NCBI GenBank assembly: GCA_018817585.1
Contig: JAHITE010000094.1
Coordinates: 1-58,959 of the forward strand
Reading direction: 5' to 3'
Length of the DNA: 58,959 nt
Source of the DNA: Candidatus Omnitrophota bacterium
Lineage (GTDB): Bacteria > Omnitrophota > Gorgyraeia > B26-G9
The position numbers were made by a program, and so were the translations under genes. The notes under the pieces were generated by a model that did no database searches, was not told where the DNA came from, and was given only the letters and a program-made list of their open reading frames with translations. This document shows, piece after piece, positions 1,728 through 43,419 of this stretch (within the stretch, counting starts at the first letter, position 1; the number at the start of each line of letters is the position of its first letter).

Positions 1728-1741
1728 TTTGCAAGTAGTTG
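1728..1741 (+). repeat. Direct repeat copy 2 (TTTGCAAGTAGTTG)
   Basis: Identical to 1537..1550. Lies in the predicted 5' leader of the giant gene, 45-60 nt before the candidate ATGs. Confidence 0.6.
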
Positions 1742-1785
1742 GGCAAATCTTGGAATTTAGGGGCCAAGATGTAAGCACTCAAAAG

Positions 1786-22700: not shown

Positions 22701-25700
22701 GCTCAAGAATCCAGACAAGCTACTTAAAGTTATTACTAAAAATACAGGTATGGGACAACTGGGTACTCCTTTGCGTTCAGGTTTTGATGATAAAAAAACG
22801 GCTCAGATTAAAACTCCTTTTAGAACAGTAAAAGATACTTTTACCGGAGATTGGATTATTTATTTAAAATCACTGGCACGCAATCTTGACGCTGTTCAGC
22901 AAAAAGAATTTGTTACTAAGTTGAAAAATCCATTGCTTACATACGAACAGACTCTTAGTATTATGCTCAATGAGTACGGGATATTACCGCTTGGGTATAA
23001 TGCAGAAGGCATGCCTTTTACTACTTTGATGACACAAGCTGTTTTTGAGGCTAAGTCAAAACAGGAAATGTTGAACGAGTTAAACCGTGAATTGAATCAT
23101 ATCGCAATTCCTGATCTTACTTTTCTTATGAAACACTTAGGAATTTCTTTGGATCCTGCAATAGCAAAGCCAAAATTAGCTGATTATAAAAATACTCTTA
23201 ATAAACACTTTTCTGCTATGAGTGATTCTGATCTAGAGAACTTGTTGAAAGAGTTGATGCTTAACAGACAAATAATTCATCAATTTATGATTTATCGTGT
23301 TGATAGTTATCAAAAAACTGTTCGGACTGCTCATCATGCTTCTATTGTAGGATATAAAGTATTTTTAAAACATGCTCTTGACCTTGATCATGAACCAACG
23401 GAAGCAGAGATAGTAAAGTATTTCAGGTCTATTTTTAGCTATATGAAAGTTTTAATGGGAAATGGAAGGTCTCATGGCGACATTATGTGGGAAGATCTAA
23501 AGGAACTTGGATGGGAAAGTGCATCTTACACAGATGGCAAACCAGATCACCATTTAAAATCTTGGGCTGATTTTGACAGCAGTCCTGAGGCTAATATTCA
23601 GCAATCGAATTGGGGTTTTAAAGTTGATAATTGGACAATGGCTCTAAGGTATGTTGATGATCCGGACGCGGTAATTTTTAATACTGACTGGGAGCATACA
23701 ATATTCCCCACAGACGCATTCTTATTGCCGTTTGTTGCCTATGAATTTACCAAACGCGAAGATCTGGGATTATTACTTACTGATTTACGGCAGGCTGATG
23801 AAGGCATGACTCCTACAGCTAAAGATCAGACAATGGCTGAAGATGTCTGGAATATTCGCATTATTCCTGCTGAGACTCGTTTTGGAACACCGGCAATGTA
23901 TGGACCGCTTATAATTCGTTTGCCTGCGATGCGTGACTTTGGGACTCCTGCAAGTAAAATAGAAGATACTTATACCGGACAGGAAGTCTTAAAATCAGGT
24001 TATAAATCTGATTTTACTCCGGCGATTAGTATGGGTAGAGGTAGAGAAAAGACTCAAGCTGGTATGCCTGGGTTTGTAAACAGGTTTGGCGGTCTTACAT
24101 TAGAGAATACATTGTCAACGCACTATCAGCAATTTTTAAAGAGTAAGTTTGTTCATTGGACTGAAAAATTAACCTTAATGTTTAATGATGATCACTATGT
24201 AAACCAGGTTCTGATTCCTCGCTATAACTTGACAATATTCCTGTTTGCGTTTTTTGTATCGTTTACTCCTTTTGCGTTTTTAGCAATACCATTGTTTTTT
24301 GTTTGCGCGCAATATATATTTGCGCAGGCAATAACTGCTGGCGGTGTTAGGAAAATGACAAAAGAATTTGGAGTCTGGAAAGGATATGGATTGTATTTAC
24401 AGCGTTTTTGGAGTCTGGTATTTACTTTTCTATCTTTGATATCAAATGATGCTCAAAAAACATCAGATGCTTTAGGCGGAAATAGCGGAGTTTTTGTTGG
24501 CGGGATGAAAGATGTTAAACATCCTTCAGACCGTTTTGGTTCTGTAGGAGATGATAAATCTATATATGGTAAGTTTAGAGAATCAACTAAATGGGGAGTT
24601 ATTTTAGCAGGAATTCTTTTGGTCGCGCCTTTACATCCATGGGGTGTTGCTGCTCAGTATTTTTTCTATGTTTTGCCATTTGCATTTATCTGGGGGCCAT
24701 TTTTGCATAATGCATTATATGGCAGAGACTCATTCAGAGGTAAGGTGCAATGGGATTATTTTAAGACAAAAAAGGCAGCATTTGATAATTTAAAAGGAAA
24801 GAGAAAATTTGGAGATTATGTTGACATGATCTTTGCTTTGCCTGTATTGAATCTTGCTCCAGTCACCGGATTTTTCTATGGGCTTATATCTATACCTTAT
24901 TTTATATTTGTAGACATTTTATGGGTTAATATCTTTAATCGTTTTATAATCAATCCTGCCGGAAAATTATTCAGAAATCTTAACTTTAAAACTATTACAG
25001 CTAAAACTTTCGGCATTACAGGTATTTCTATACAGTACAAAGATTTGACAGAAAGCTTTGTAAATGATCTGGAACTTAGATTTAATATATCAGGGGCAAG
25101 TGATAGTCGTTTTTCGCCGAATGGCAACCGCGCAGAAAGACTGGCTCAGATATTTAATGAAGCAATGCTTTATTTAGAAAGCACAGTTGTTCAAGATACA
25201 GTATTGAATGATTATTTGCAAGATTTACTGGTTAAGCAGGATAATCGTGCTCCTCCGATGGTTGTAAGAGTGAACAGCGCATTGCCGGTAAATGCTGCGC
25301 GCTATTATAATCCAAAACAAGGATGTGTAGAAATAATTCTTAATGAATTATTTACGCGTGAGTTGATTGCCGCATATGATGTTTATCCTCAGGCAGTGCT
25401 TACAATCATTGCTGAAAGATTATTCCATGAATTAGCGCACAATAATACTGTGGGTACAGATGCCCAAGAAAGAGAAGAGACAAAACAGATTCTTTTAAGA
25501 GATATTGCTCTGCATCAGCTGGTTATTAAATCAGGTAATCAAGCATTTGTTGATGATTATTTTGCTAATTCAAATCCTACATTTAAATCAGGTTATTATT
25601 TTAAAGCAGTTATCCAGGATCAGCTTATTCCGGTTTTAAATGATACAGCTGAATTTGATAAGCGGGTTAAGGCTTATCTGGATAATACTCTGCATCAAAT

Positions 25701-28700
25701 ACACAGCGAGCCTCTAAAAGGTATGGCTGATCAGAACATAATCATTAATAGCCCTGAGAAATTAGCCCAAGCATATGATATTAATTGGGAAAGCACAACT
25801 GCCATGGTTAAAGCTGGAAAAGCTCCGGCAGCTCCATTAAAGAATTTTAAACATGAAAAGTCAGATGTATCAATTATTGTTTCTGCCCCGGATTTTCCGC
25901 AAGCAATGAGAGATGCTTTAAGTAATATAGCTGAAGAATTAAAAGGTATATTCAAAGGGTTGGCAATTACTGATAATGAAATGATTCATGCAACTATTTT
26001 TGTTCTGGGAGATAATTATCCAATTACTCCTGATATGGCGAATAAAATAAGCGATATTCTTAAAGATATTGGGCCGCTTAAAATCAGGGTTAAAGGTCTT
26101 AATATGAGCTCAAATGGAAATATATTTGCTCAATGTTATGTGGAAGATGAAAAATTTTATAAACTTTTAAAGAAACTTGACTGGGGTTTTCCTGATGAAA
26201 CCAGGGGAAGCCGCATATTGCATATATCTTTAGCCAGAATATCAGAAGGTATAAGTTCTGACGAATTTAAACAACTCTATGATAAGGTTGCGCAATTACG
26301 GAATTTTGATTTTGGACAAGTTGTAATTAAAACTCCAGAACTTATTGAAGTATTAGATCGTTGGGGTTTTGCTGTCGGAAGATCATACACATTTTTTGTT
26401 GATGATTTGCTTTCAGATAATCTGCAAACAGGCAGAGCATTAAAAGATGAGTATATTACTAAGCTTGATGGCTTGAGACAGTCAGGTTCTATCAAACCTG
26501 CTGATAAATCACAGCTTAATTTTGAGATGACGGAAAAACAGCAGCAGCTTTATCTTCAAGCAATTAAAGAAGTTTTAGCAGAACGCAAAGAAGAAACTAT
26601 AACTCCCGCAATACTTTTTGAAGCAGCGGATCGTGCGACAAAGGATTATAAATCAACTTTAAAAGCTCGTGTGTGTTTGCAGCCAGGAACAATGAATCCT
26701 CTGCATTATGGTCAGATTACCGCATCGCTTGCTGGTATTTTAGGCCAGGTTAGTGAAGAAGACAAAGATAAAGAGGTCTTAACTTTGCTTGCTAATGGAG
26801 GCACAGTTCCAGATAAACCTTATGCTGCTTCAGCTAAGATACGCAATGAAATGGCTAAACAAGCAATAAAAGATCCCGATCTTGAAGAATGGCTGGAAGT
26901 TACTCCAATCAGAGGACAAGTTGTTAATATGTTCATGTCTGATCCTTATGCTTTAGAAAAAACCGGAAAAAATAGAGCAGCTAGAAGATTTAATATGGAT
27001 ATGGCTGGTTTTATCTGGTTGTTTGCCTCTAATCCAGAGGTAGATTGGATTTACCTTGTTGGTTCTGATAAGGTTGCCGGATATGGTAAGAAAAATGAAA
27101 AGGGTCTTATTGTTGATACATTAAGCAAAGCAAGAGTTAAAGTGGTGTATTTTTCCCGTACAGGTGAAGAAATTGATTATGAAAGAGATATTGAACCTTA
27201 TGAATGGATGAATGCATTAGAAAAACAGGGGTTTTTTGTGAAATCAGAAGTTTCCTCATTTGCCGATCTTTCAGCTACAAAAATTAGAAAGGCATTAATC
27301 TCTGGGGCTGATAATGTAGACAATATTCCTCTTGCAGCATCTGTGCCTCAGCAGGTAATAGACTATATAAAGCCTAATTCTTTGGCTGGCAGAACTTTAA
27401 TATTCCTTTATGATTTGGAAAACAGAGAAAAACAAGCTGATGAACAAGTAACAGCAGGTATTTTGCAAAGAGCTTTGTTTGCTTATGAACAGGCAATCAA
27501 AGATATTGAAAAAGAACAACAGAAAAATGATATTGCTGCTGATATTTTGGCTAAATTGCACGATAAAATATCAGAAAAGGTAGAAAAGCTTAAAGCTAAT
27601 ATACTAATTCAAAACCAGAATGCCCTGATGATTGAATCAGATATTTTCATAAATGATTTAAATGAATTATCGGAAAAATATTTTAATAAACCAAAATTGA
27701 CAAAAGATAAATATGATACTGCCAGAGCCATGGCTTATGAAGTAAACCGCAGATTATCAAGCCGTGATGGGATAAAAGCATTTGGTCGCAATCATAGACA
27801 GGGTCTAAACCCAGAGGTAATTGATCTTGAATATGATAGATATAATCGTGTGCTTGAGGGTGTTATTCAGATATTAAATCGCCATGAATATCCTAATGTT
27901 TTTGTTAATTCATGGGGGTATGATCCAGTAATACGTGAGCGTAATTTAGCTAAACTAAATGAACAATTTACTAAATTATTTTTTGTGAACATTGTAAAAG
28001 GAATGCGGAAAATACTGGCAAGAACAGGGTTTATCGCTAATGCCTCGCCTGCTGCTAGAATTATAATCAATGATTTAAGGATTCTTAAAGAAGATGAGAT
28101 AGAAAAAATGACAGCGCGTGAACTGGCGGATAATATTATTAAGCCTTTGATTGATACACCAGTTGGTTTGAGCATATTTGAGGATATGCAGGAAAAATTC
28201 ATGTTATACTCCGCAGCTCCTGGTACAGGTAAAGGCGCATTAATAGAAAACACCTTCAACCCTGTAAAAAAAGGTGTGGGATATCCTGGGCTAGTAAATA
28301 AACTAATGCTTTATCATACAAGAGATCCGCATAATGAAAATACAGGAAGACTTTCGGAAAAAGACGGATTAGCTTATCACTTCCGTACCCAGGCTGAATT
28401 GGAAACCCTGGAAAGACAAGGAAGAATTGAAACCGCTTGGGTAAATAAACAGTTGCAAGGCTTAGCCAGTAAAGATTTTGAAGAGACAGTTGTTTTAAAT
28501 AAAGAGGATATCAATATACAGGATAGTAGACAAACATTGTTGGATTCAGACCTGATAATAGAAGAAAGAGAAAATCAATATATAGTTAAACGAAAAATAA
28601 GAGGTTCTCAGGCAGTTTTTGATGGAAATAAACCAGTTGTTTTAGAAGGTGGTTATGGCTGGTTTTTATCATTAAAAGATCGTTATCCAGATATTACAGT

Positions 28701-30546
28701 TGCTTTTATTTCTCCGTTTACCGGATACGAGATATCAGTAAGAGCTGGGAATACCAGATGGATAAATGATACATTTACTCATTCAGATGAAAAACGTTTA
28801 GCTTATGAAGAATTAGCATATATTATTTCCCAAAATAAAGGTGAAGTTGATTTAACCATAGATATTGATCTGCAAAAGCAGATAATAAACGCGGTGTATA
28901 AGGAATTAAGTGTAATTTATGTTACTTCAGAGGTTCTTCCTTTTTCTAAATCTGGTGGATTAGCAGAAGTTCTTGGGCAACTACCGCGGGCGATATTAAA
29001 AGAAGGCCATAAACCAGCGGTATTTACTCCGCTGTATAAAACGATTTCTACTAAAGATTTAGAAAAAGTAGATGATTTCGAGATTAATATTGGCAGGGAA
29101 ATCCTGAATACAACTGTTTGGAAAAAGGTGCACAATGGAGTGGAAGTATATTTTATTGATAATAAGTATACAAATTATTTATATGAAGATGATGATCTTA
29201 AAATCGCTTTAATATTGTCAGAAGGGGTGTTGCAGATAATTGATAAAATGGTAAGCAATAAACAACTTAACAGACCTCAGGTTATTAATGCGAATGATTG
29301 GCCTACAGGCTTAATCCCTCTATTCTTACGCACAAAATATAGCGACCATGCTTTATTTAAAGATGTTGTAAGCATCTTTTCAATTCATAATCTTGCTTAT
29401 CAGGGAGGAGAAGCTAATCGGATTCCTTATGAAAGGTTTAAGGAACTGGGCATTTCTGATGAACATTGGTTTGGGGTGATGAACTTTGAAGATACCGGAG
29501 CATTTAATCTGGTTAAAGCAGCTATTCAGCATTCTGATGCGATAGTAACTGTTTCAGAACAATACGCAAAAGAAATCAGAACTAAAGAATTCGGCGAGCG
29601 TATGGAGAATATGCTTGAATTTAGAAAAGATGATCTTTATGGAGTTTTAAATGGTATGGAAATACCTGCGGCGCAGATACTTGACTCAGCTCAAAAACAA
29701 GCAGTCAAAGTCTTATTGCAAAGAGAATTCGGCTTAAAGCAGGATCCCAACGCAATTGTTGTGGCAATGGCAACCCGGGTTACTCAGGAAAAGAATGTTG
29801 ATGGAGCCTTAAATGTGGCTAGAAGAATTTTGTTAGAAAACTCCGAAGTTCAGTTTGTATTTAAAGGCGAAGGGCATAAAGATAATCCATATACTAAACA
29901 AATGCATGAGCAAATGATCGCATTAAACAATGATTTTCCTGGACGAGTTTCTTGTGATGATGAACCAGGTGCTAGACCGAGGCATTCACACATTGCTATA
30001 GCTGGCAGCGATGTTTTGCTTGTCCCTTCGCGTAAAGAACCATGTGGATTAGTGCAGCAGGTTGGTTTATTGCAGGGATCTTTGGTTGTAGTGCATGCTG
30101 TGGGTGGGCTTGCAGATACAGTTAATGAGTTTAATCCCAGGACTGGTCAGGGTAATGGGTTTAGATTTGATAATGTAGATGATGAAAATGATCAGGATTT
30201 TTATCTTGCTGTAAATAGGGCTCTTGCAGTATACCGCAATAAGGATTTAAAAGCTAAAGTTGTGTTTAATGCTCAAACAGAAGACAGAAGCTGGGGAAAA
30301 GCAGCACGTAAATATGCTGAAATTTATATACAGGCATTTTTAAAGAAGAAAAAACAAAACATATCAACTGGAATCACAGAAGCAGAAGCTGAGTTGCCTG
30401 TAGAAGAGACTTTGAAGCCTTTTGCTCCCCAGTCAGACATAATAAAAGATTTGCGCAATCAGATATTGAAAAGTTTGTCAACTGATAGACTGCATGATAG
30501 GGTTGTTCCGGTACAAAGAAATCTATTGCTTGAACAAGCAATATAA
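1786..30546 (+). CDS. Giant multidomain protein (about 9,580-9,605 aa)
   Basis: Continuous open frame 1729..30546 in the supplied track. In-frame ATGs at 1786 (MFSRGN...) and 1804 (MFNSGKKHNIYFRAIS..., AGGGGA at 1795..1800). By analogy with the paralog leaders, 1804 may be the true start. Many independent domain-level motif matches along the frame (listed separately) argue for real coding. Confidence 0.9.
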   Translation: MFSRGNMFNSGKKHNIYFRAISAVIIQAFLLSDIAFAAGGDLRWLNNDNSQSSTLAPGTAIPQGTFRTKFDLILALVSAFEKKDSADLPLGMNYIDPANSIVKFEGKDSDLFIFEANKDNVPLVLKNAADQIRFNGYVIATLPKEVQKIPEDYVEVISEKSFAEKLAALKAQGKDFDPRAALELVKQSILLNGFTGQSETIGAKQYAPWKKNKWDVQKQAIALMTSGVIVRMPTSAGKTFVFNGVSVLRSLANKWNPNALKEVSIVHTEEGLVERDARNAAQVNADFGLTTGYVVSRDGRRIAYFVDVNGNESELPGGEKELYATADIVYLNISNFIFRFLDDNFTARSEADMALNWGKQTYFLAFDEGDVPLDIRAFNPHTISGGASLTGQGLQQISEQTLKMQEIIDQMIQGELLPVSNELCKKNDDSKTVSLTKRGEQWLKAKLNTISAYTDNKDKASVFADQTLWQEFTELALSAYVYYQNGQDYIISDENKVVIIDKDNSGMQMQGMSWSNGLDIAVRLKERRNGLDIEIKPDALNVASMILPVILSNKLGLVSGVTAASATIGEKTADKYGLEFKNLSGLDQVSKRVEQIILSSDKQESMQNAIDALVVMKSDQSATREMADWGIPDNAGAVLVRCDNENQAADFTDQLLQKQAMSERNIVRITQDGKITDAKGAEIANLSLADLDSLLADDNVDNVIIEFVSKNHESVFGGKMLKDKVEALSKNSKVIIVSTNIAGRGVDFKGDRMVVMSLSADASEETDIQLRGRSARDGREGFFFGFWSPEDFNNYKNLVSEQLAYLNSKVRVGKPHTFIMSNDSKAADRSQKIITAIRKSINDNKQTMEQQQKAFGEFLWQEADAKGKNQGFAREHVMYRRSIVTQGLNSLGIPQHIIQSIREKIAQAVENKITFFLQPEEFVNEILSKEFGLSDIDARTIKQSLESGDYDIAQAVFSVIETVLKNRALEIVDQQWTRFLSESEWNKHRLEKISTRSGYEKQFIKPQMIYAEIKRITANIFERTKTVTQEELGKNVIALAFQLAGKDPTSEEMDQAQAAADKINTLSLGQRIKLLTLRIGPAAIAISANIALAVLIGVIFKALSIGGVGSAVGLPVIGSAISLFLSLGPVALAAITIGAVMIGFALNSQVKRLSQVDSSIAKMADAIAIGHRQSLKDIGKTVGLTAWRKTLTVTATFAPFVAAMTLFSYIGSAAFIAGTIGNTVLLASVVLGVVGIISSGLLLFTSRKDLKSAPLMPMTSAKRFFRGGIFGSLVTLGTYAFAFVSSGTFGVPVIIGIVGVGASMLIAKNIFALSSDNIAVKGWITPLGFLAGIAAAAAIVLGIVPLLGVQVIDSIRIAMSTGVMPGGGVLQVVGFLVTALFSLQGIMFFKSQYSTGQKIAKQEVGFDGKAKKSKQTIFTFLAMGRASALQSRMVMITTGSIMGLAVTVGVLILGVKLIAMLPLIALFTVGTFISKVIIRKISTKPTDYSALAKRKVKNFAGIQSQLNTVGLNQFSENIGLIINQFKQEVGNSQNPTSLAYSKLNGMIEKDKLLQTFLIALQSSSPNDGSFFSKAEIKHMIAKIPMEDLNSQQRAAFTKAIIALLVELNLAKVGVNRLFNIAVNPEKLTKALQISVMPFMGATMLASVPTMAAASISQNAQSPYETAKADLPQNTPEIAAYYANLAEQARNERLIEIPDIEQEQALNQFVSKFRIPVLTEYQTNLACEFGAIRENGIRTHKGFDFLVQAGTNIYPTMPGRVVFAGQGTGYGNLVVVEHEVENGISGRIDYFYTLYGHNQSNLVKTGDYVGVNEPIAKAGVTGHASSPDGGCVHFEIKQAEKKINDYYQYIALTALDPEAVLGKDLHLMADISKRNEPILVASIDPSMPLFSLAKNKEPKVIGQAPPPPAKEQVNVSKPAPYSSFAGIIGKKIVLNQLIKGNSWAQAAQKLFGNPHLWATLRDIYARQHPDENVVGTLIINIANGATLEITEELAALLSPEFKATIDPRNAEQIIQPTVHQTVLPIVPEAGSQVTARVWKHTVEPGDCLSKIAQDLLGSHRLWPNFREIYNQQNPNKKIIGTLIFASDTLTLNITDEVAALMTPAARENLNLKPAASGPPPAIAKLTASDTPAAIANPVSNNDDQDQDSFAIRDQVAARAKELMASRAAELAKKKNAETEKIYYSDPAKPTPARNYERGLANAIIKILTNAAEGGHFAVAENPALSDELKTAGNLYFYHKGSEQEIGARDGSLQKLIDADRASNTAKNVADIEIWIGSKYLKDTKGNILRDKRNNPILNELAKPYIPLIDNKPLVYDSLSQLSDVQNLLHFYKFPTQLENRDSFGRGQELTSPSEIRDYQAKGFPLDIWIEGKDVGGQYSYRLNFGTVAANMTLDDVNDYARARVLQLEVVGKILSNLDRESQQQMINDANTKGITPFGAAAIPNIAGKLPENPMMKENPYIGAIVAQRGSNPFEVKTYLQSDNLNQNYIEVYNAQKHISKAERLEKIDKNTNFDNVYYFSKDSAGKLLQRKMHFLSYNRQGKLVEVNARSAHDVIVLETEGAKGDWANCDILWFGKNATNKEILNVSIGTLMHQIAVENAKKTEKQLKRRMVLETALIPLNVMGGFGVGGIIGQLSQPGAQAGIRLIYDSLFTAWEMPTGAKIMGPPSKDTVETFISSYLFFNQGPGKNRPAEQKGLEFITKEDKAGNLTVTDKEFAAYLEKQKKDKKSDLNLWLTMAMDDQASIGFVNYVQGQRKFAIAMFSAGILDNLARLNTESFNAPGNAFRNILASRYFSLTGEVNVLAVIGAIAGNDVLGAGANFGAFKEGWGNFWENYVNFFGVTVDAKAVINSLSTLFTKDKVFEYSPELPKKRAFGLYFLGFPIMTYFDLKNTQGFINSSNSFAFEMESSSNLFDKKWWRDKVTEYTEEDFQKLKLVPLGKVKAEGEKGQPVWRVYYINADTGGIVFLGEKGYASKLKRLEDDVKLFDQFMSLIGEGGGRIEKKSYDAGAVVEANITQPQATKAGERIPDLNQQMLSFSWNTRHSLTNISPSHIYDTKATTNSLNWAFTYDIALQSITLAAGGMPDESDALLNYLTEHKWLYRQGEKDDFNGGVYNSVDLAQISSATQKPIAEFRNNAGNSNWVAAALIKGALQHLKQRFPEPSLNPWQLVLVDQKEEVDQGREDFRKNGDIDKVFAGRGETQWGFLGLRTTKLAAVDQAMNDQEKAYIERAKNIAVSLLALQDKDGGIRHGPTELNIKSTEENINAFGLFSMLYDLTGENKYKDAAKKILEWLPKVYDKQTGVFHRGITDEIVDKIYTTDANALAIIVIGPEILNKLKDRNGYVFDPNGKTAEKIMGLKDNKGTITASEVTVKYKGNDVLGYDYTNADGRANRGAVVSPEMTAHVAKAHKVMFRYYANDPAKQTYHADKAKTLLDNMEKIALRTDLGISFPNSTVPENIKQGEQINRYYDERKKESGQAASDFYTPSLASLNSLWIILADKDVDPFDVRNEKPLAERSAVNGFKGFDQSIINLKERILDLQKQKRTDAKWSKENEQILIAAIDQINQKMQLYTKGMIIPAGQEYNQDILTIIALKAKQTKGIKLNPKEAADLKASESRHPYYQGWDKLSMLSEKRFVINQIKEIKKLESPAKDQKLKELIDKVIKAYYGNGLKSEQQIAVMIEKFAQLLKNSESVEMAAFELVDMLYGQDKLISEDIFKGVYQYLSAEDNSIVTVTLIAPAEAIKAAREKRQEEQTIAAKQYELLEKGGVIITDKSTGRLLEIRAGEGIDVLGQFLDKIKNMVAAEEIDVAAMQKIMKDRWVFTIPANSSEALSVNGKKQDVTVTLVFPYASEYVREEENLRTGEKEVRVFKYGLLDRVITKDKITVMQYNNIEVDVSGTVYENITRRLDKDAPYKPENILLISETAVYDTVFDVEKVSGAVSPVVIKKVLDPDSKAVKYEVYKDYELPVMTFSEKYVTLIEFDKWGREKSSTTYKNTGSIDNPRWNPEKPVLSSEVLPLIGLKDSEGNPVYWDENSKWSSKLVFDHERNKHFIEVRDQNGNLIKKYDGTMSENTQAKPQPLQVIPEQKDQQFEIDARDAQGRAFKVEKETSFYFEYLDEFKTLGVNAAEMNRLGLKGSAMVGDTYLYTIDANGVGSRQKNAEGKELEPVGRSVAQVQRPNEKGISKYFDNKGNVLLQMYAPKQKLVWQQVIDNQGRKVTEYYGYMVDRNNKRVANVQESDLSKLKFIRDKVSYSIYSVDQLNDLKALNIGIYNQLKAEIKKLNIDIESEQFKKDLNAQGKIDLALLGVTCAYDPDTNKPVELMAFSSVEKNADNKFIINGGDVLVISKDMQKKDVSQQVIDGAGRVKIKYDGKFDSLNKRFIREKVTYFYYEYQNRFESYNISAGLAEEMKILGLFGVAMVGETFTYDDNTKQQSAQPIAYSFLRAFENKSYVDEKGNILVQMMNANQHMSRQDLINNQGQTIKRYLGKLINAETKEFERAQASYFFYSTQQLEEFKEQNPDFYKQLVKEYKKVGVDIEAESFKAELNRNGKIGIAIIGATYLYDQNLNKEIKLMSVSRIVKNKQGGYIDEQGNVLVEMKDLINNLHWQELIDSTGRIQVKFDGVVKAGQFVRNQRTYYFYDYASFFAYRQAHPELKVELDAWEAKLPQLGKVNAKEVMDELGRRNIALFGFTFLYDQETDKDTEALAFSFLNVQQNQGNKVEDYFSKAGEISVQNVRFKQQLTWEEIKDNFGRPVKVYDYEKGKDNKYYPNKVTKYHYVYNDTFSKLGITKEVMNQLGRAGFAMVGETYLLKKGTKIEQEKPGSVSVMKPHKNLKGTQLSDYFNNKGEMIVELDNKRDLRVWQEVRDAHGRVTYSYDGEIIDGKFVILNVTRFDYDYSDALFNTVAEKMEKEWIKLGLNKEQKRAELKEAMSRLSKYYMAAVGSTYLYDAENGNEYGINPDNLTDFSILEKFNLNEYGNRDQFKVDLLNNVDIKFLNNVVKKLGINIDAKVIDGLGKAIRKAAQGYVDEKSFITIDSLIEDLNTLKTEFNLKGLNDADLRSIFIELFKNTDYINDDGYVKAMIYNIRNRLLWMGIKDNKGKIQYKYDGYLTKPGQFEWVWVTKVNYYWPEEIENLGAIGIAYNSNTHFYQERIDMDSFASELAAVYFSSKDIKTDIEKLIKVTVKNSKQSDAVLAAIDKISLKGKDEIALNKALRDLLREIIKQTAAPFNIDLGLSANFNIDKLVFEFGNITANSNKDNLMPKIEKFLRENVLDKEYREKLLFVIQQILQDPAMQNKTAKQYQEALLMSIMKSREFAVVTESQIVPFKQKEGKDIYIDEAGNVIFHMFQVRRQLDYQEVKDNRGSIVILFDGKINKDKLAQPLTKHRSEAFERDIMSFSYFENRVLNSMSISNRGEAFFFDEQDLMAKRLANLPVRNIQLSVFEYTQKLRGQEAKDMESIVSLSGGQRKLAEKLSKVVQIEVVKLEQDVQFITPATLAKRIYAQKEKYELNGFTLNSLTKLCSELFGQRFSESWLIPYEEQKGSDLDVFISKDKEGNVLGDIHYQAKERWHSSIFDLDDPRDKVKAIDNDAIQKAFADYRIRLEKAGVEDFSQIIKQIGGEQKLSENFRPLLLESLLKLQKEKAQVSLEYIISTMDGLKGDFGLSALTNTDITILTSSLCTTSANVYYQKEKDNLGRVVKHTWGYVDNTGQFNGTMQFRSQYQTEYGKFGVADITTSFLVEANWTLFNYSKAVNLDQRSGAVDYAVIKTMLPNERGEYFAGELEKKFEDSWYIFRIPLPKTDMIEFFQAGPFNLKYDAAKSVVEDLIGKYRTGRFLTQEDLIYFLTPSLEKNGVDINNSDIKEILISKLFKGMDSKSATIFVDRKSIDDEKQRPNILQMWMEVKNNRGHLDLMFSGYLNMYDEQGVLIKEKRQSLDVGTIEFGKTFVNFLHYNKKRNIGISKGSTLFRFDPNFAIETEYNGVLYRKYKDEGREDLAHTKDLRFETNEQGRVAMLYIVDDVRRSKQSTVGLALRPDGRKVYEIHQGKVGKGELLKGQFTDKVKLYYDLYELPVETKLLYPDGTERLKEKHFVVFIADRIAEQWVFAQRVVETRLDAFLNKLNEFVSGNEIVQPQGETKQFYTRSYAESEKEAERNGAYFENGIEMYQRKDKFNPVVWRDYQATGAVDAFKEYLDIQILKHATNNLFTNVFVEGRERGVFMPLLVVVGTTTVLITLGLPAALLAASWFLSLFVKVTGRKRKAWKVPVAASGDGTPDDADKPPVEPSVVVAGSGPRTAPDATFVGSKNIDSSIRNRMSIMIPQIGVIGQFTKYISDLYEEGGFLEADPILKKGMEDAFIQRFYPDWDGREATRPQRTEEVWSGYLTQYGIELTEIEKLVIEPVMYILYYATSQDSRRLDNWTAGQTRTGKGNKWDKADGAINWDTKTNPFVKFGHIYQKQEEKELVVDYIGSLLSEQNIVLTDEDKGFLITKLFNKKDSSIIDPKKIKTILVDRFGALDDLTIQNIVDKVIVRYGGREKMLLVGDRDFRRYFEYCEQDGIDPFTGEALRPGAIANQELDFRGFIPVARKMIVSQSADSQKTFYEKVKNRDQYLLDPMRKLLAEKYKQDNFRPYEFPQAFAKGDVKRTILTWGLVLGGIALSGYFLFVGGMAATALWVFPIYSLFSWQLVEMMPMLVFFYRHKMGGWMTVLRAKTRAQYEGFKPRRDMANDLRAQLGLSVTQAKKAVNILTKGYFKNDFATQDELNEFIAKTIRKYKKDFRIIDFNQATLLSFTKNLNQDKTTRDRLQGKYRFWTVLFTCWGLNFALLSGASLYYAAGTIPAIGYVIGIGVLLLNSVVSLRSWWSLLNEAVTLNMEKQGKWREFSSYEQIKPIHLQQIAVDPYLKDVFNTVLVDETLLHYTLITEQEVQLLKDALVNGTALPKLENPRAQRKVIEFFNKINLYSADEFEEMKEFMLKNPDKLLKVITKNTGMGQLGTPLRSGFDDKKTAQIKTPFRTVKDTFTGDWIIYLKSLARNLDAVQQKEFVTKLKNPLLTYEQTLSIMLNEYGILPLGYNAEGMPFTTLMTQAVFEAKSKQEMLNELNRELNHIAIPDLTFLMKHLGISLDPAIAKPKLADYKNTLNKHFSAMSDSDLENLLKELMLNRQIIHQFMIYRVDSYQKTVRTAHHASIVGYKVFLKHALDLDHEPTEAEIVKYFRSIFSYMKVLMGNGRSHGDIMWEDLKELGWESASYTDGKPDHHLKSWADFDSSPEANIQQSNWGFKVDNWTMALRYVDDPDAVIFNTDWEHTIFPTDAFLLPFVAYEFTKREDLGLLLTDLRQADEGMTPTAKDQTMAEDVWNIRIIPAETRFGTPAMYGPLIIRLPAMRDFGTPASKIEDTYTGQEVLKSGYKSDFTPAISMGRGREKTQAGMPGFVNRFGGLTLENTLSTHYQQFLKSKFVHWTEKLTLMFNDDHYVNQVLIPRYNLTIFLFAFFVSFTPFAFLAIPLFFVCAQYIFAQAITAGGVRKMTKEFGVWKGYGLYLQRFWSLVFTFLSLISNDAQKTSDALGGNSGVFVGGMKDVKHPSDRFGSVGDDKSIYGKFRESTKWGVILAGILLVAPLHPWGVAAQYFFYVLPFAFIWGPFLHNALYGRDSFRGKVQWDYFKTKKAAFDNLKGKRKFGDYVDMIFALPVLNLAPVTGFFYGLISIPYFIFVDILWVNIFNRFIINPAGKLFRNLNFKTITAKTFGITGISIQYKDLTESFVNDLELRFNISGASDSRFSPNGNRAERLAQIFNEAMLYLESTVVQDTVLNDYLQDLLVKQDNRAPPMVVRVNSALPVNAARYYNPKQGCVEIILNELFTRELIAAYDVYPQAVLTIIAERLFHELAHNNTVGTDAQEREETKQILLRDIALHQLVIKSGNQAFVDDYFANSNPTFKSGYYFKAVIQDQLIPVLNDTAEFDKRVKAYLDNTLHQIHSEPLKGMADQNIIINSPEKLAQAYDINWESTTAMVKAGKAPAAPLKNFKHEKSDVSIIVSAPDFPQAMRDALSNIAEELKGIFKGLAITDNEMIHATIFVLGDNYPITPDMANKISDILKDIGPLKIRVKGLNMSSNGNIFAQCYVEDEKFYKLLKKLDWGFPDETRGSRILHISLARISEGISSDEFKQLYDKVAQLRNFDFGQVVIKTPELIEVLDRWGFAVGRSYTFFVDDLLSDNLQTGRALKDEYITKLDGLRQSGSIKPADKSQLNFEMTEKQQQLYLQAIKEVLAERKEETITPAILFEAADRATKDYKSTLKARVCLQPGTMNPLHYGQITASLAGILGQVSEEDKDKEVLTLLANGGTVPDKPYAASAKIRNEMAKQAIKDPDLEEWLEVTPIRGQVVNMFMSDPYALEKTGKNRAARRFNMDMAGFIWLFASNPEVDWIYLVGSDKVAGYGKKNEKGLIVDTLSKARVKVVYFSRTGEEIDYERDIEPYEWMNALEKQGFFVKSEVSSFADLSATKIRKALISGADNVDNIPLAASVPQQVIDYIKPNSLAGRTLIFLYDLENREKQADEQVTAGILQRALFAYEQAIKDIEKEQQKNDIAADILAKLHDKISEKVEKLKANILIQNQNALMIESDIFINDLNELSEKYFNKPKLTKDKYDTARAMAYEVNRRLSSRDGIKAFGRNHRQGLNPEVIDLEYDRYNRVLEGVIQILNRHEYPNVFVNSWGYDPVIRERNLAKLNEQFTKLFFVNIVKGMRKILARTGFIANASPAARIIINDLRILKEDEIEKMTARELADNIIKPLIDTPVGLSIFEDMQEKFMLYSAAPGTGKGALIENTFNPVKKGVGYPGLVNKLMLYHTRDPHNENTGRLSEKDGLAYHFRTQAELETLERQGRIETAWVNKQLQGLASKDFEETVVLNKEDINIQDSRQTLLDSDLIIEERENQYIVKRKIRGSQAVFDGNKPVVLEGGYGWFLSLKDRYPDITVAFISPFTGYEISVRAGNTRWINDTFTHSDEKRLAYEELAYIISQNKGEVDLTIDIDLQKQIINAVYKELSVIYVTSEVLPFSKSGGLAEVLGQLPRAILKEGHKPAVFTPLYKTISTKDLEKVDDFEINIGREILNTTVWKKVHNGVEVYFIDNKYTNYLYEDDDLKIALILSEGVLQIIDKMVSNKQLNRPQVINANDWPTGLIPLFLRTKYSDHALFKDVVSIFSIHNLAYQGGEANRIPYERFKELGISDEHWFGVMNFEDTGAFNLVKAAIQHSDAIVTVSEQYAKEIRTKEFGERMENMLEFRKDDLYGVLNGMEIPAAQILDSAQKQAVKVLLQREFGLKQDPNAIVVAMATRVTQEKNVDGALNVARRILLENSEVQFVFKGEGHKDNPYTKQMHEQMIALNNDFPGRVSCDDEPGARPRHSHIAIAGSDVLLVPSRKEPCGLVQQVGLLQGSLVVVHAVGGLADTVNEFNPRTGQGNGFRFDNVDDENDQDFYLAVNRALAVYRNKDLKAKVVFNAQTEDRSWGKAARKYAEIYIQAFLKKKKQNISTGITEAEAELPVEETLKPFAPQSDIIKDLRNQILKSLSTDRLHDRVVPVQRNLLLEQAI
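1837..1905 (+). other. Conserved Sec-type leader / signal-anchor of the giant protein
   Basis: FRAISAVIIQAFLLSDIAFAAGG follows the basic stretch KKHNIY. Same motif at 31099..31161, 35699..35764 and 38279..38344. AxA-like cleavage context (AFA|AG). Confidence 0.7.
2390..4160 (+). other. SecA-like DEAD-motor ATPase domain (within giant ORF)
   Basis: WDVQKQAIALMTSGVIVRMPTSAGKTF (Walker A, nt 2479..2505). YFLAFDEGDVPLDIRAFNPHTISGG (compare SecA [22 protein letters not shown]). QDYIISDENKVVIIDKDNSGMQMQGMSWSNGLDIAV (compare [34 protein letters not shown]). VSTNIAGRGVDF (compare IATNMAGRGTDI). IQLRGRSARDGREGFFFGFWSPED (compare [24 protein letters not shown]). E. coli SecA motifs recalled from memory. 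Confidence 0.8.
4980..6230 (+). other. Polytopic membrane block (roughly a dozen hydrophobic helices)
   Basis: Long run of G/A/I/L/V-rich 20-aa segments separated by short basic loops (LRIGPAAIAISANIALAVLIGVIF ... MLPLIALFTVGTFISKVIIRK). Confidence 0.65.
6955..7300 (+). other. Peptidase M23 (LytM-type) domain
   Basis: HKGFD (HxxxD, nt 7000..7014). GTNIYPTMPGRVVFAG, YGNLVVVEH, TLYGHNQSNLVKTGDYV. The terminal HxH motif reads CVHFE (Cys codon 7273..7275). Confidence 0.75.
7570..8070 (+). other. Two tandem LysM-like repeats
   Basis: HTVEPGDCLSKIAQDLLGSHRLWPNFREIYNQQNPNKKIIGTLIFASDTLTLNITDEVAALMTP and a more degenerate upstream copy NQLIKGNSWAQAAQKLFGNPHLWATLRDIYARQHPDENVVGTLIINIANGATLEITEELAALLSP. 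A Pro-rich linker precedes them. Confidence 0.5.
10890..12310 (+). other. (alpha/alpha) toroid domain with QW-like motif, homologous to the C-terminus of ORF 47440..49386
   Basis: NWAFTYDIALQS vs DVGFTYDQALSA. LLALQDKDGGIRHGP...TEENINAFGLF...YKDAAKKILEWL...FHRGITDE...TDANALAIIVIGPE vs LLELQNRNKDGSLPGGP...TEQNIAAYMFF...YALAARKVYKWL...FNRGTDDR...TDTVALSIMAFGPQ. Confidence 0.55.
13700..19950 (+). repeat. Array of at least 10 divergent 120-150-aa protein repeat modules (protein-level only)
   Basis: Recurrent anchor D.(K/Q)GN(V/I)L(V/L).M.......L.WQ(E/Q)(V/I).D..GR....(Y/F)DG. Examples: WQQVIDNQGRKVTEYYG, SQQVIDGAGRVKIKYDG, WQELIDSTGRIQVKFDG, WEEIKDNFGRPVKVYDY, WQEVRDAHGRVTYSYDG, WMGIKDNKGKIQYKYDG, YQEVKDNRGSIVILFDG. 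Each is followed by (V/T)(T/S)YF(Y/F)Y.Y, a helical stretch, and A(M/I)(V/I)G(E/D/A)T(Y/F)(L/T)YD. Confidence 0.7.
21700..24970 (+). other. GT48 (FKS / callose synthase)-like beta-1,3-glucan synthase module flanked by TM clusters
   Basis: Core at nt 23959..24117 IEDTYTGQEVLKSGYKSDFTPAISMGRGREKTQAGMPGFVNRFGGLTLENTLS. It aligns without gaps to the yeast Fks1 segment [53 protein letters not shown] (recalled from memory), matching at ED.Y.G, G, G.GR(D/E), F, G, E, LS. Upstream VIFNTDWEH...VAYEF vs IQLIDANQDNY...LAEF. Downstream LGGNSGVFVGG and FAFIWGPFLHN vs IGGARYISTGRGF and FAPFVFNPHQF. TM clusters at about 21715..22380 and 24215..24960, as in FKS topology. Confidence 0.55.
25860..26400 (+). 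other. 2H phosphoesterase (LigT / cyclic phosphodiesterase-like) domain
   Basis: Two H-x-(T/S)-x motifs 78 residues apart: MIHATIFVLG (His codon 25987) and ILHISLARI (His codon 26221). Confidence 0.5.
26520..27380 (+). other. NadD-like (HxGH-family) nucleotidyltransferase module, giant-protein copy
   Basis: LQPGTMNPLHYGQI (HxGH motif with the last His replaced by Gln, codon 26713..26715). LLANGGTVPDKPYAAS, RRFNMDMAGFIWLF, YLVGSDKVAGYGKKNEKG. SSFADLSATKIRKAL (ISSTxIR-like). Confidence 0.65.
27600..28900 (+). other. Guanylate-kinase-like module (tail segment followed by P-loop head)
   Basis: Tail 27628..27995: ESDIFINDLNEL...YEVNRRL...YDRYNRVLEGVIQIL...WGYDP...FTKLFF. Head 28198..28800: LYSAAPGTGKGALIENTF, LMLYHTRDPH...SEKDGLAYHFRTQAELETLERQGRIETAWVNKQLQGLA, VVLEGGYGWFLSLKDRYPDITVAFISPF. 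Confidence 0.55.
28905..30345 (+). other. GT5 glycogen/starch synthase (GlgA-like) domain at the C-terminus of the giant protein
   Basis: VIYVTSEVLPFSKSGGLAEVLGQLPRAILKEGHKPAVFTPLY (KxGGL motif at nt 28948..28962). INANDWPTGLIPLFL. VPSRKEPCGLVQQVGLLQGSLVVVHAVGGLADTV (compare PSRFEPCGL...GGLxDTV). Confidence 0.8.
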
Positions 30547-31065: not shown

Positions 31066-34000
31066 ATGTATAATAATAAACATAGCAAACATGTGTGGTT
31101 TAAAGCAATCTCATTGATTCTGATTCAGTCATTTTTGTTTACTAATATTGGTTTTGCCGCGGAAAATCTGATTACATCTGTGGATAATAGCTATCTTGCA
31201 CCGACTATAAATATTCAAAATGGAGCAATTTCTTCTACCTTTAATAATGTTTTAAATGATAACGATATTACTAATGCCAATAATGTAAGTCATATTGAGC
31301 CATTAAAAACCGGTTTTGAGACAAAAAACCATTATATATCCGAGCTTAATCGCTTAAAATCCAAGAAATATATTAATAAGTTTACTGATGCTGAGCGGGA
31401 AGATTTAAGAATTGAGCTTACTTCTGAGCGTAAGGCAGCTTATTTGGCCGCGATTCGGGAAGTTTTAAAAGAAAAGAATGTAAAAGTTATTACTCCGGAA
31501 ATTTTGTTTGAAGCAGCAAAAAGGGCAACTAAAAATGATCATTCTACGGTAAAAGCGCGGGTGAATTTACAGCCAGGAACAATGAATCCTTTGCATTATG
31601 GGCATTTAACCGCTTCTTCAGCCGGGATTATCGGCCGGGTTACAACTGCGGATAAAAATAAACAAGTAAAAGTTATGACTCTGCTTGCCAACGGCGGGAC
31701 TGTTCCGGACAAACCTTTTGCCGCGAAAGCTGAGACTCGTAATGAAATGGCCAGAAAAGCAATAGAAAATTCAGACATGCATGATTGGACTGAAGTTACT
31801 CCGATTCGCGGTCAGGCAGTTGACATGTTTCTATCTTCCCGGGAAAATTTAGTTTTAGCCGGAAAAAATGAAAGCAGTAGACGGTTTAATATGGATATGG
31901 CTTCATTTATCTGGTTATTTGTGGCTAATCCCAATGTTGAATGGGTATATCTTGTTGGTTCTGACAAAGTCGCCGGATACGGTAAAAAGAATGAAAAAGG
32001 TTTATTGGTTGACACTTTAAGCCGCCCGGAAGCGCATGCTAGTGTGGTTTATTTTGGCCGAAAAGGCGAAGAAATAGATTATGAAAATGATATTAAAAAA
32101 TATGATTGGCTGGATAAACTATGGAAAGCTGGATTTTTTAAGCTGTCCACTGTGTCTAGTTTTGCTGATTTATCAGCAACTAAAGTAAGAACCGCACTGG
32201 TAAACGGCGATGAGCAGATTGACGGTATCTCTTTAAGTGAAACCATGCCTACCAGTGTGTCGGAGTATATAAGAGATAATCGGGAATTAATGTATTTATA
32301 TCCCTTAGAAATGCAGGAGAAAAAAGCTAATAAGCTGGTCTCTTCTAATAAGTTAGCTGAAGGTTTAAAAGAATACGCCAAAACCTCGCAAATGGTTAAA
32401 GATGAAATTGCTAAAGATGCTATTGATCGCGCTGTAGATTTAGGAACACTTAATACTTTGTATTTAATGGTACTGGCCAATGAAATCAGAGCTTTGGCAT
32501 CTGTAGGTGCTTTGAAAGAAATTTCTCAGATATTCTTAATCTATTCCGCCGCGCCAGGTACAGGCAAAGGTGAGTTAATGGATAATACCTTTGAAAAAGG
32601 AAAAGGCAAGTTTGCTGATATTATTGGTAAGATTATTCTGTATCATACCCGTAACCCAAGAGTTAAAAAAGGTGCTTCTGAAAAAGACGGGTTAAAGTAT
32701 CACTTCCGCACTCAAGCACAGCTAAAAGACTTAGAGGCTAAAGGCAAAATTGTTACTGCTTTGGTTAATCGCCAGTTACAGGGTTTAGCAATTGAAGATT
32801 TTGTGGAAAATGGGGTTATGGTCCAAGGGGTTAATAATGCTGATCTTTTGCAAAAAGACGATATTATCAAGCAGATAAAATCAGACAATGTAGGTAATAT
32901 TCAGCAGATTATTGTTGAAAGAGCAGGTAAAACCGAAAAAATTAGCGGTGTTAGTATTGCTCTTGATTCAATGTATGGTCTGAATGAGGGAGATACGGTA
33001 ACTGATGTAAAAAATAATGCGGTTATTGTTGACCGGCAAGTAAAAGGCATGTCTTCTGTATTTGCTCAAGGCGAGCCAGTGGTTTTAGAAGGCGGATATG
33101 GCTGGTTTAATGCCTTGGTTAATCAAAATCCTGAAATAGTTAGCATGTTTATTGCTCCATTTGCGGATAAAGATATTCAACAAAGAGAAGCAAATACTGC
33201 CTGGATTAATCAGAACTTTTCTAAAACATCAGAAAGATTAATTGCTTACCAGGTAATACAGACTTTAATTGAAAAAAATTTAGGCGAGATAAGTCTTACT
33301 CTAGCTAATGATCAGTCTAAACAGTGGCAGTCTGTTATTAAAAGAGCAGTGGAAGATCAGAGAATAGCTAATTTTAATGCTGAGCTTCTTGACTCGGAAG
33401 CATTTGTTCAGGATTTAAATGATCTGCTAAAATTATTCTCTAAAGATCCGATTAATAAAGATCAGGAGAATCTAGTTCGTTCTTTAGGCTATGAAGTTAA
33501 TCGCCGTATAATATCTCGTGAAGGTCAGATTCGTTATAGTCGCGGAAAACGGCCGGCATTTGCCGAAGGTGAAACTGATCTGCAATTTGACCGCTATAAT
33601 CGGGTATTAGAAGGGGTTGTTCAAATTCTGCATCGCGATGATTATCAGAAGAATAGGCAATTTGGTAAAAAAATTATTAACCCTTGGGGCTATACAGAAG
33701 ATAGCAAAAAGCAAATTATCAGCACTCTTACCAGTGATTTTACCAGATTCTTTTTTGAAAGTATTTTAACTGGAATCAGGATTCAGCTTGCTACTAAAGG
33801 TCATCAGCTTAATGCTCCGCCTGCTGATATTGACCGGAAATCTATTGAAGCTGGAGAAGCTGAGATTGATCAGATTCTTAAATACAGCGATCAGGATATA
33901 AAGGGGCTATCAATAGAAGAGCTGGCAGCTCATGTAACTGCGCTTACTAATACAGGTACTTTGGCCAGAGTGCCGGATTTATCGCAAATATTTTTAATTT

Positions 34001-35340: not shown

Positions 35341-35390
35341 AAGCAGCGATTAGCGAATAGTTTAAATTTACAAAGTCACCAATATTATCA

Positions 35391-35425
35391 GCCGCGAGAG
35401 ATAGCTTCTTGCGGCTTTTGTTTTA
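35391..35425 (+). terminator. Rho-independent terminator
   Basis: Stem GCCGCGAGA (35391..35399) / TCTTGCGGC (35407..35415) with one G-U pair, 7-nt loop, then TTTTGTTTT. Confidence 0.65.
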
Positions 35426-35568: not shown

Positions 35569-35671
35569 TTTATGTATTTTTTATAAAGGACTTTATGAAA
35601 AGATTACACGGATTAATTTTAACATGCAAACACGTAAACGCGCTAATGCGCTAACTTGAAGGGTGTGTATT

Positions 35672-40648: not shown

Positions 40649-40739
40649 AATAAGATCGAATATTAACTTTGCGGTTATTAAAAAATAAACAATAAATAAT
40701 TTATTTGTCAGAGTTGGGTTGGAAGGAAAGGGTATCTAA

Positions 40740-42632: not shown

Positions 42633-42645
42633 TATTATTAAGGTA

Positions 42646-43308
42646 ATGGTTAAGATAAGGAAAAAGATAAAAATGAAAAATAGTTGCTTCCTGATAGTTT
42701 TAATCAGTTTAATTGTTTGCGCTAATCCTTGGGTTTTTGCTCAGGAAGGATTAATTCCGGAATCTGAGCCAGCTAAAAAAGCGGGACAGGCCATTGAGCT
42801 TAAACAGCAAATTGTTTATTCTGATAAAGACGCCGCGGAAAACAGTTTTTTTCCATCCCAGACTATTGGCGATGGGCCGGCAATTGAATTTGATCAGGGT
42901 TGGCAGGAAAATCCCCAATCCGGCAGTACCTGTGTAAAAATAAAATATAACGCGACTGGTGATTTTGGCTGGGCAGGCCTTTATTGGGTTAATCCGGTTG
43001 GTAATTGGGGACAGAAAAAAGGCGGCTATGATTTGCGCTTTGCAAAAAAACTTACTTTTTGGGCCAAGGGAGAAAAAGGAGGTGAACACATCGCGGTTTT
43101 TAGATTAGGCGGTTTAAAAGGAACTTATCCTGATTCTGATAATCACGGAATCGGACCTGTGGTATTGACTCCAGAGTGGAAACAGTACGCTGTGGATGTT
43201 TCTCAAAGAAATCTGAAGTACATTTTTGCCGGGTTTAGCTTTGCTCTTACCAAAGCGCACAATCGAAAAGGTTGTATTTTTTACCTGGATAATATAAAAT
43301 ATGAGTAA
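42646..43308 (+). CDS. Secreted CBM-like beta-sandwich protein (paralog 1)
   Basis: The track ORF starts at 42478 inside the previous gene. Realistic starts are ATG 42646 (MVKIRKKIKMKNS...) or 42673. Signal peptide LISLIVCANPWVFAQEG. GSTCVKIKYNATGDFGWAGLYWVNP..WG...GYDLRFAKKLTFWAKGEKGGE ... FYLDNIKYE. Confidence 0.6.
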   Translation: MVKIRKKIKMKNSCFLIVLISLIVCANPWVFAQEGLIPESEPAKKAGQAIELKQQIVYSDKDAAENSFFPSQTIGDGPAIEFDQGWQENPQSGSTCVKIKYNATGDFGWAGLYWVNPVGNWGQKKGGYDLRFAKKLTFWAKGEKGGEHIAVFRLGGLKGTYPDSDNHGIGPVVLTPEWKQYAVDVSQRNLKYIFAGFSFALTKAHNRKGCIFYLDNIKYE

Positions 43309-43338
43309 TAGGTTTGGGGCTTAGAATTAATAATGATT

Positions 43339-43398: not shown

Positions 43399-43419
43399 AT
43401 CAATTAAGAGGAGGAAGTA

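Follow-up and report, generated by a model that had tools for sequence, protein, structure and literature searches.

Three ancient copies of a NadD/NMNAT-like nucleotidyltransferase module, one with HxGQ in place of HxGH, at a giant-gene locus of Candidatus Omnitrophota

The stretch studied here is contig JAHITE010000094.1 (assembly GCA_018817585.1) of a Candidatus Omnitrophota bacterium, positions 1 to 58,959, and this whole stretch is called the window. On one strand it carries a giant open reading frame (ORF), followed by the genes g2 and g3, and each of the three encodes one copy of a nucleotidyltransferase (NT) module resembling NadD and NMNAT, the adenylyltransferases of nicotinic acid mononucleotide (NaMN) and nicotinamide mononucleotide (NMN). 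The preliminary description of this DNA had placed the same module in the giant and in two downstream genes. A tblastn search with the g2 module as query returns exactly three copies in the window, and the coordinates given earlier fall inside them: the query itself (31345-32397), the giant copy (26500-27492, 58.5% identity, E 1e-128), and the g3 copy (36929-37987, 50.4% identity, E 4e-111). The module is approximately 330-370 amino acids (aa) long, pairwise identity among the three copies is 50-58%, and the same segments appear as DNA-level repeats with 63-83% identity. The identical runs reported as shared, LQPGTMNPLHYG, LLANGGTVPDKP, RRFNMDMA.FIW, YLVGSDKV, and SFADL.A.K(I/V)R, are all present in every copy in a three-way alignment. 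The difference in the signature motif can be read directly in the sequence: the giant copy has NPLHYGQ, while g2 and g3 have NPLHYGH with the codon CAT in both, so that one third-position base separates the Gln codon CAG from its counterparts. The coordinates of these and the other features are collected in Table 1.

Table 1. Features of the giant-gene locus, in positions of the window
Feature	Position	Strand	Remarks
NT module (NadD/NMNAT-like), giant copy	26422..27534	+	giant aa 8232-8602; HYGQ; SATKIR motif intact
NT module, g2 copy	31303..32424	+	HYGH; copy used for the structure model
NT module, g3 copy	36899..38032	+	HYGH
CAG Gln codon at second His of (T/H)xGH	26713..26715	+	giant reads NPLHYGQ
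Domain X, giant copy	27574..28098	+	~175 aa; invariant D..DRYNRVLEGVxQ
Guanylate-kinase-like P-loop domain, giant copy	28129..28893	+	
GlgA-type GT5+GT1 glycogen/starch synthase domain	28894..30543	+	ADP-glucose type; TIGR02095
g2 guanylate-kinase-like + X unit 1	32512..33945	+	
g2 guanylate-kinase-like + X unit 2	33991..35337	+	57-61% aa identity to unit 1
Giant ORF	1729..30546	+	9,605 aa; SecA_DEAD/PP_bind/Helicase_C, Peptidase_M23, GH76-like region; C-terminal NT-X-GK-GlgA cassette
g2	31066..35340	+	1,424 aa; signal-like leader, NT module, two tandem guanylate-kinase-like + X units
g3	35663..38212	+	849 aa (846 aa from ATG 35672); leader, HEAT repeats, NT module, coiled-coil tail
Terminator-like hairpin + T-run, 3' of g2	35390..35416	+	

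NadD profiles, a profile search of PDB sequences, and a structural comparison together place the NT module in the (T/H)xGH nucleotidyltransferase superfamily, with NadD/NMNAT as its nearest relatives. The NCBIfam NadD models match 13 of 13 members of the family alignment (best E 1e-12). The PDB profile search has NadD on top (best 8aih, E 1.5e-5), with an alignment spanning the GTxNPxHxGH block, the PxK loop, the GxD block, and the ISxTxxR-type block. The AlphaFold2 (AF2) model of the g2 module (pLDDT 91.3, pTM 0.89) has a Rossmann-like nucleotide-binding fold. When this model is compared with the PDB by Foldseek, the top 36 matches are all NMNAT or NadD, with E down to 1e-7 and TM-scores of 0.57-0.76 normalised to the target; matches at E<=1e-3 (ranks 1-37) and most of those to rank 43 are NMNAT, NadD, or NadM, and PPAT appears from rank 40 (E 2.3e-3). 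The (T/H)xGH motif is present in g2 and g3 and not in the giant copy; in the model it follows strand 85-90 and precedes helix 99-110. All three copies have a C-terminal motif of the ISxTxxR type (SATKIR, SATKVR, and AAVKIR), aligned to ISSTKIR of Enterococcus faecium NadD. Mutagenesis of Escherichia coli NadD has linked T11, H19, R46, and D109 to catalysis (PMC1249556). All three copies have the equivalents of T11, H16, and D109, with Lys in place of R46; the H45 position is Asp in the NT family, and the H19 position is Gln in the giant copy and His in g2 and g3.

The earlier term "NadD-like" therefore holds for the nearest relatives, but the module is not a NadD equivalog. The equivalog model TIGR00482 has a cut-off of 112.45 bits; the g2 copy reaches 29.7, and all 13 members match far under that cut-off. 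For PF01467 (gathering threshold 21 bits) the scores are 15.8 for g2 and 13.1 for g3, with no match for the giant copy, and Pfam searches of the whole proteins and of the isolated modules found nothing significant for the NT module, although some relatives (P0057, P0012) do clear the PF01467 threshold. The module is a distinct, previously unannotated branch of the superfamily. A word-indexed search of 5.8 billion proteins recovered only 10 relatives, while an exhaustive profile search of 1.84 billion cluster representatives recovered 40 at E<=1e-30 and 56 at E<=1e-10. Past those 56 there is a gap and then a tail of ordinary NadD-like proteins of approximately 200 aa (E 1e-9 to 1e-4), so the NT family is small and separate. 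Several of its members carry the JGI label NaMN adenylyltransferase. A scan of GTDB genomes found 15 loci, mostly in metagenome-assembled genomes (MAGs) of Candidatus Omnitrophota, and at most of these loci the module is part of a very long open frame (at least 4,247, 3,678, 5,032, 7,017, 4,735, and 5,280 aa). The family is thus rare and is carried chiefly by Archaeovorin-type giants of Omnitrophota and by the satellite proteins with a leader that accompany them.

The second His of the signature motif helps to hold the ATP phosphates and the transition state. Of 30 close copies of the NT module, 29 keep it; in the first position of the motif they have either H or T, and both of these are canonical. 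The closest positional ortholog of the giant copy (P0017, 63% identity over 1,374 aa, with the same order of NT module, domain X, guanylate-kinase-like (GK) domain, and GlgA-type domain) reads HYGH, as does the second positional ortholog (L002, approximately 55-58% identity); because both keep HYGH, the change from His to Gln is derived, recent, and specific to the lineage of the window. That Gln replaces a signature residue needed in relatives, as had been proposed, agrees with published mutants: the residue corresponds to His19 of E. coli NadD, where H19A keeps 0.62% activity (PMC1249556), and in FAD synthetase (FADS) the H31A/D mutants have a kcat of <0.1 compared with 17 per min (PMC3509593). 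In the wider family, the only copies lacking the second His are distant ones from which further motif residues have also gone. Degenerate motifs (HFGQ, HYGY, SYAN, and TYRD) occur in the multidomain proteins P0065 (aa 481-815), P0062, P0032, and P0056, from which the ISxTxxR arginine is also gone; P0065 is the one that reads HFGQ. Judging from these motifs, inactive NT-like domains seem to recur in the family.

Apart from the His, the giant copy is conserved like the other copies. Of the 65 columns conserved in >=95% of members it keeps 63 and departs from two, and every other member departs from 0-2. Tajima relative-rate tests compared the giant copy with P0017 and L002, using six outgroups; it had an excess of unique changes in only a few comparisons, none of them significant, and wherever a test was significant the giant copy had fewer unique changes. 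Nonsynonymous divergence (dN) stays well below synonymous divergence (dS) between copies. The dN/dS analysis suggested earlier for detecting relaxed selection on the giant copy gives no meaningful branch test because synonymous sites are saturated; the relative-rate and conserved-column comparisons, which address the same question, show no relaxation. There is no sign of relaxed constraint or decay in the giant copy.

The three copies have 57-68% nucleotide identity, with a proportion of synonymous differences (pS) of 0.63-0.77 and dS from 1.4 to infinity, and because of this low identity and saturation they are ancient paralogs. Recent gene conversion among them was considered and is ruled out by the same nucleotide identity and by the lack of long identical DNA runs. 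The related Omnitrophota MAG Modern_marine.mb.214 carries both a locus of the giant type (L002), collinear with the giant from approximately aa 5100 to the stop, and a locus of the g2 type (L001), which has the g2 architecture followed by the same MFS and glycoside hydrolase (GH) genes with no g3 between. Since both types are found there, the duplication that separated the giant and g2 copies is older than the split from Modern_marine.mb.214. In a neighbor-joining (NJ) tree of 22 modules, the giant, L002, L001, g2, and P0001 form the clade (giant, L002, (L001, (g2, P0001))) with a bootstrap of 0.80, and g2, L001, and P0001 group with a support of 1.0. The g3 copy groups weakly with modules from other giants and has a different origin, and the stand-alone proteins form their own clade. 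Each of the two units of a GK-like domain and domain X in g2 pairs with its counterpart in L001, which makes the internal duplication of g2 old as well.

When the region of L001 at 10392-12195 is set beside 35663-38212 of the window, the MFS transporter lies directly 3' of the g2 ortholog and g3 is absent. At another locus, L014, HEAT repeats lie upstream of the NT module inside a giant ORF, an architecture like that of g3. The preliminary description had also equated the C-terminal 1,100 residues or so of the giant with a leaderless g2. This stands for giant aa 8232-9051 (approximately 820 aa, comprising NT, X, and the GK-like domain), which match g2 with 37-55% identity; it does not stand for the arrangement, as the order in g2 is NT-GK-X-GK-X compared with NT-X-GK in the giant, and the last 550 aa of the giant are a GlgA-type domain that is absent from g2.

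The domains accompanying the NT module can be assigned with differing clarity. The GK-like block matches PF00625 (E 2.4e-4; the window copies score 21.3 and 20.6 bits, and the cut-off is 25.2) and TIGR03263 (E 8e-6), and guanylate kinases take all of the top 12 places when PDB sequences are searched with its profile (best E 2e-5). It keeps HTRNPR, comparable to the TTRxPR motif for the GMP phosphate, and E.DG..YHF. The fused GK domains of distant relatives clear the Pfam cut-off (43-52 bits). In g2 the GK-like domain and X are duplicated in tandem (32512-35337) with a period of approximately 1,460 nt. The g2 copies of domain X lie at 33364-33945 and 34798-35337 and share NPWGY and F..FF with the giant copy, in addition to the motif given in Table 1. 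Domain X always accompanies a GK-like domain, on either side, and has no match in the PDB or Pfam. By eye it looks like the guanylate kinase lid together with the C-terminal helix, so that the X-GK order of the giant would be a circular permutation; this idea was rejected, as tests with hidden Markov models do not support it: P0042 and P0065 have bona fide GK domains, and the X profile does not match their C-terminal halves. The AF2 model built for the GK-like and X unit from a five-row alignment (pLDDT 54.9) is not usable. The C-terminus of the giant clears the cut-off of TIGR02095, the ADP-glucose-type GlgA family (330.7 bits compared with 328.45), and its KxGGL motif reads SKSGGLAEV.

Local BLAST searches with pieces of the window show that the NT module travels with the GK-like P-loop block, the block X of approximately 175 aa, and the GlgA-type domain, in more than one order. 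NT-X-GK-GlgA is found in the window giant, L002, and L004/L005, GK-X-NT-GlgA in L009, NT-GlgA in L012, and NT..GK-X in L003 and L014. Among distant relatives, P0036 and P0037 are leaderless proteins of approximately 1,160 aa with the order GT5-GK-NT. The GG[LM] core of KxGGL was looked for in both and not found, so their GT5 part may be divergent. P0036 and P0037 (L022:5170-8673) are surrounded by housekeeping genes (leuB/leuCD side). Other distant relatives are GK-NT proteins of approximately 750-880 aa and combinations with GT2, NUDIX, NDK, and APH domains.

The separate clade of stand-alone NT proteins, approximately 350 aa long, occurs in a conserved operon (L016:8001-17056 and L018:1556-10614; also L017:8001-9597). 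The partners are a DUF4062-like protein that is the PADLOC candidate PDC-S60 (E 2e-22), a protein of approximately 1,125 aa with a weak HAD match, and a protein of approximately 1,270 aa with NUDIX, ARMT1-like, and CofD parts. The pair adjoins a phage-type integrase in a Zixibacteria contig. From this gene content, the operon may be a mobile or defence-related system that modifies nucleotides. PADLOC found no match among the proteins of the window.

A Pfam scan of the giant ORF finds SecA_DEAD, SecA_PP_bind, Helicase_C, Peptidase_M23, a GH76-like stretch, and the GT5+GT1 starch/glycogen synthase at the end. An N-terminal leader is common to the giant (1786-1900), g2 (31066-31170), and g3 (35672-35770), and a similar one occurs in L002 (15160-15363), P0001, and P0002. 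It consists of a basic stretch, a hydrophobic IS..(L/I)IQ.FL core, and an A-x-A-like end, followed by an S.L(A/S)P-type motif. Judging from the shared leader, the true start of the giant is probably the ATG at 1786 or 1804, just 5' of the leader, rather than the TTG at 1729. The same leader suggests that the products of the giant, g2, and g3 go to one common destination. A terminator was looked for between the giant ORF and g2 and none was found, while a strong one follows g2 (Table 1), so the giant and g2 may share a transcript.

Upstream of the giant gene, an ORF with a histidine-kinase-type HATPase_c ATPase domain (15-1418) reaches the region of the window edge. Downstream, 39206-52418 encodes an MFS_2 sugar transporter, two GH2_C/GH72-like proteins, a PilZ protein, and an N_methyl pilin-like protein, a gene set like the neighborhood of carbohydrate import and type II secretion system (T2SS)-like genes reported for giant genes of Omnitrophota. 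Two small secreted paralogs (42478-43308 and 43420-44064), approximately 50-65% identical to each other, are also found downstream.

The explanation favored here, with a probability of roughly 0.6, is that the window holds three ancient paralogs of a distinct NT branch that would carry out adenylyl transfer, the giant copy being a weakened or substrate-binding version with the intact g2 and g3 copies beside it. On this proposal, the module would use ATP to adenylylate a phosphorylated acceptor, with release of pyrophosphate. The acceptor would most plausibly be a sugar phosphate, giving an ADP-sugar for the adjoining GT5 domain, as the NT module is repeatedly fused to glycosyltransferases, including in the compact GT5-GK-NT proteins; NMN or NaMN is a possible alternative acceptor. 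Because only the second His has changed and normal constraint acts on the remainder of the domain, the HYGQ copy is most likely a weakened or a substrate- or ligand-binding version and not a decaying remnant. The g2 and g3 copies, which have the same leader and probably the same location, could supply full activity. Several points weigh against this proposal. Evidence for the substrate is indirect, and fold and sequence are nearest to NMN/NaMN enzymes and not to sugar-phosphate enzymes. NUDIX domains co-occur with the module (L003, P0030, P0032, and the L016/L018 operon), as in NAD enzymes of the NadM type. A bacterial tryptophanyl-tRNA synthetase (TrpRS) works with TIGN in place of HIGH, so an enzyme with an amide in the fourth place of the motif can be active (PMC10201369), and by analogy the HYGQ copy may still be active. 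The Gln codon is seen in one assembly only. The leader resembles a Sec signal peptide, and export would place ATP-dependent enzymes outside the cytoplasm, a puzzling topology that conflicts with their chemistry.

If the nearest relatives are taken at face value, the modules are real NMN/NaMN adenylyltransferases in NAD synthesis or salvage similar to NadR and NadM, with the GK-like and NUDIX domains handling pyridine nucleotides and the GT5 link incidental. This main rival is a possible, though doubtful, explanation. All of the best sequence and structure matches are NadD/NMNAT, the JGI labels say the same, NUDIX is fused or adjacent at the loci just listed, and fusions of NMNAT to a P-loop kinase (NadR) or to Nudix (NadM) are established architectures; however, the score is far under the NadD equivalog cut-off, Asp stands in place of the substrate-contacting His45 of E. 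coli NadD, fusion to a glycosyltransferase (GT5 or GT2) recurs, and three copies in 12 kb would be odd for a housekeeping step. A narrower disagreement concerns only the Gln: that it is functionally neutral, still hydrogen-bonds the ATP phosphates, and leaves the copy fully active is unlikely in our view. The TIGN of the active TrpRS is a precedent, and the remainder of the giant domain is as well conserved as in the active-looking copies, but His persists in all but one of the close copies, and across the wider family nearly every member whose motif is not degenerate has it, which argues for strong selection at the position, and substitution by Ala or Asp abolishes activity in NadD and FADS.

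The opposite possibility, that the giant copy is a dead pseudo-enzyme domain that is redundant with g2 and g3 and drifting to loss, is distinctly improbable. It would agree with the essential role of the second His in the relatives tested and with the clearly degenerate motifs of the distant long proteins P0032, P0056, P0062, and P0065 (the last with HFGQ); those copies, however, have lost several motif residues including ISxTxxR, whereas the giant copy has lost only the His, and its retained columns, its lack of rate acceleration, and a dN well below dS are not those of a drifting domain. Least probable, and very unlikely, is that the true codon is CAT or CAC and that CAG arose as an error of sequencing or assembly. 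The difference is a single third-position change in one assembly, and the retrieved contigs of an independent Logan assembly of SRR6514274 stop short of codon 26713-26715, but consensus substitution errors are uncommon. Those contigs reproduce g2, g3 (846 aa), and the MFS gene, and because g2 and the MFS gene are exact in them, the consensus of the window is otherwise reliable and an error at the codon is unlikely. When JGI metagenome contigs were scanned for the exact pattern surrounding the Gln codon, nothing was found, and a version of g3 with the GTG start is not on record.

The wider arrangement can be given a tentative and rather speculative interpretation. The NT module, the GK-like domain (with X), and GT5 would form a self-contained unit that makes and polymerizes a nucleotide sugar, in which a NadD-derived HxGH enzyme replaces GlgC as the ADP-glucose or ADP-sugar pyrophosphorylase and the kinase-like domain recycles the nucleotide. 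Such a unit would be built into leader-bearing giants of predatory or episymbiotic Omnitrophota, with the HxGQ copy as a regulatory or substrate-holding subunit. Large stretches of the giant proteins of Omnitrophota are without annotation, and three recurring blocks in them are now assigned: the NadD/NMNAT-like NT module, the guanylate-kinase-like domain, and domain X. These travel with the glycogen-synthase-like domains already noted in such giants, and they provide a concrete hypothesis for one part of the giants, namely local synthesis of a nucleotide-activated substrate for GT5. The HxGQ copy is a natural single-residue variant at an essential catalytic His, and with two adjacent intact paralogs as built-in controls its effect is easily testable.

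Compared with known systems, the NT module shares with NadD/NMNAT the Rossmann-like fold, GTxNPxH-x-G-H at the junction of strand 1 and helix A, the G-x-D motif, a P-x-K loop that aligns with PPHR of E. coli, and the C-terminal S-A-T-K-I-R of the ISxTxxR type. It differs in length (approximately 330-370 aa compared with 190-230 aa, or approximately 150 aa longer), with conserved extra helices at both ends, in scores far under the family cut-offs, in the replacement of His45 by Asp, in having HxGQ in one copy, and in its setting, either within a giant multidomain protein or in a fusion with GK-like and GT5 domains. NadR and NadM likewise combine an NMNAT-type domain with a P-loop kinase or a Nudix hydrolase, respectively, and NadM (PDB 2qjo) is a weaker Foldseek match; however, the proteins of the window have no helix-turn-helix (HTH) domain, their kinase is guanylate-kinase-like, and the GT5 fusion has no counterpart in NadR or NadM. 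Domain II of HldE/RfaE is a heptose-1-phosphate adenylyltransferase that makes ADP-heptose and is a precedent for the supply of an ADP-sugar. The resemblance is one of function: in HldE an adenylyltransferase of the HxGH fold is fused to a kinase and provides an ADP-sugar for a glycosyltransferase, comparable to the combination of NT, kinase-like, and GT5 domains. The kinase of HldE is ribokinase-like while that of the window is GK-like, and the top Foldseek matches of the g2 model include no specific sequence or structural match to HldE or HldC.

The giant itself is of the Archaeovorin type, with 9,605 aa, SecA_DEAD, PP_bind, Helicase_C, M23, and GT5/GT1, and the closest loci come from Omnitrophota MAGs. 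Giant proteins of Omnitrophota have been described with SecA-like, GT5, GT1, and NUDIX content (West-Roberts et al. 2023, 10.1101/2023.11.21.568195; 2026 catalogue, 10.64898/2026.06.07.730766). Neither of these accounts nor a further literature search mentions NadD/NMNAT-like or guanylate-kinase-like domains in them, and Pfam misses both domains here. The giant of the window differs from the published descriptions in these two domains, but it is like the published giants in its SecA_DEAD/PP_bind, GT5/GT1, and M23 content, in the HEAT repeats of a satellite protein, and in the carbohydrate-import and pilin/T2SS-like genes found nearby.

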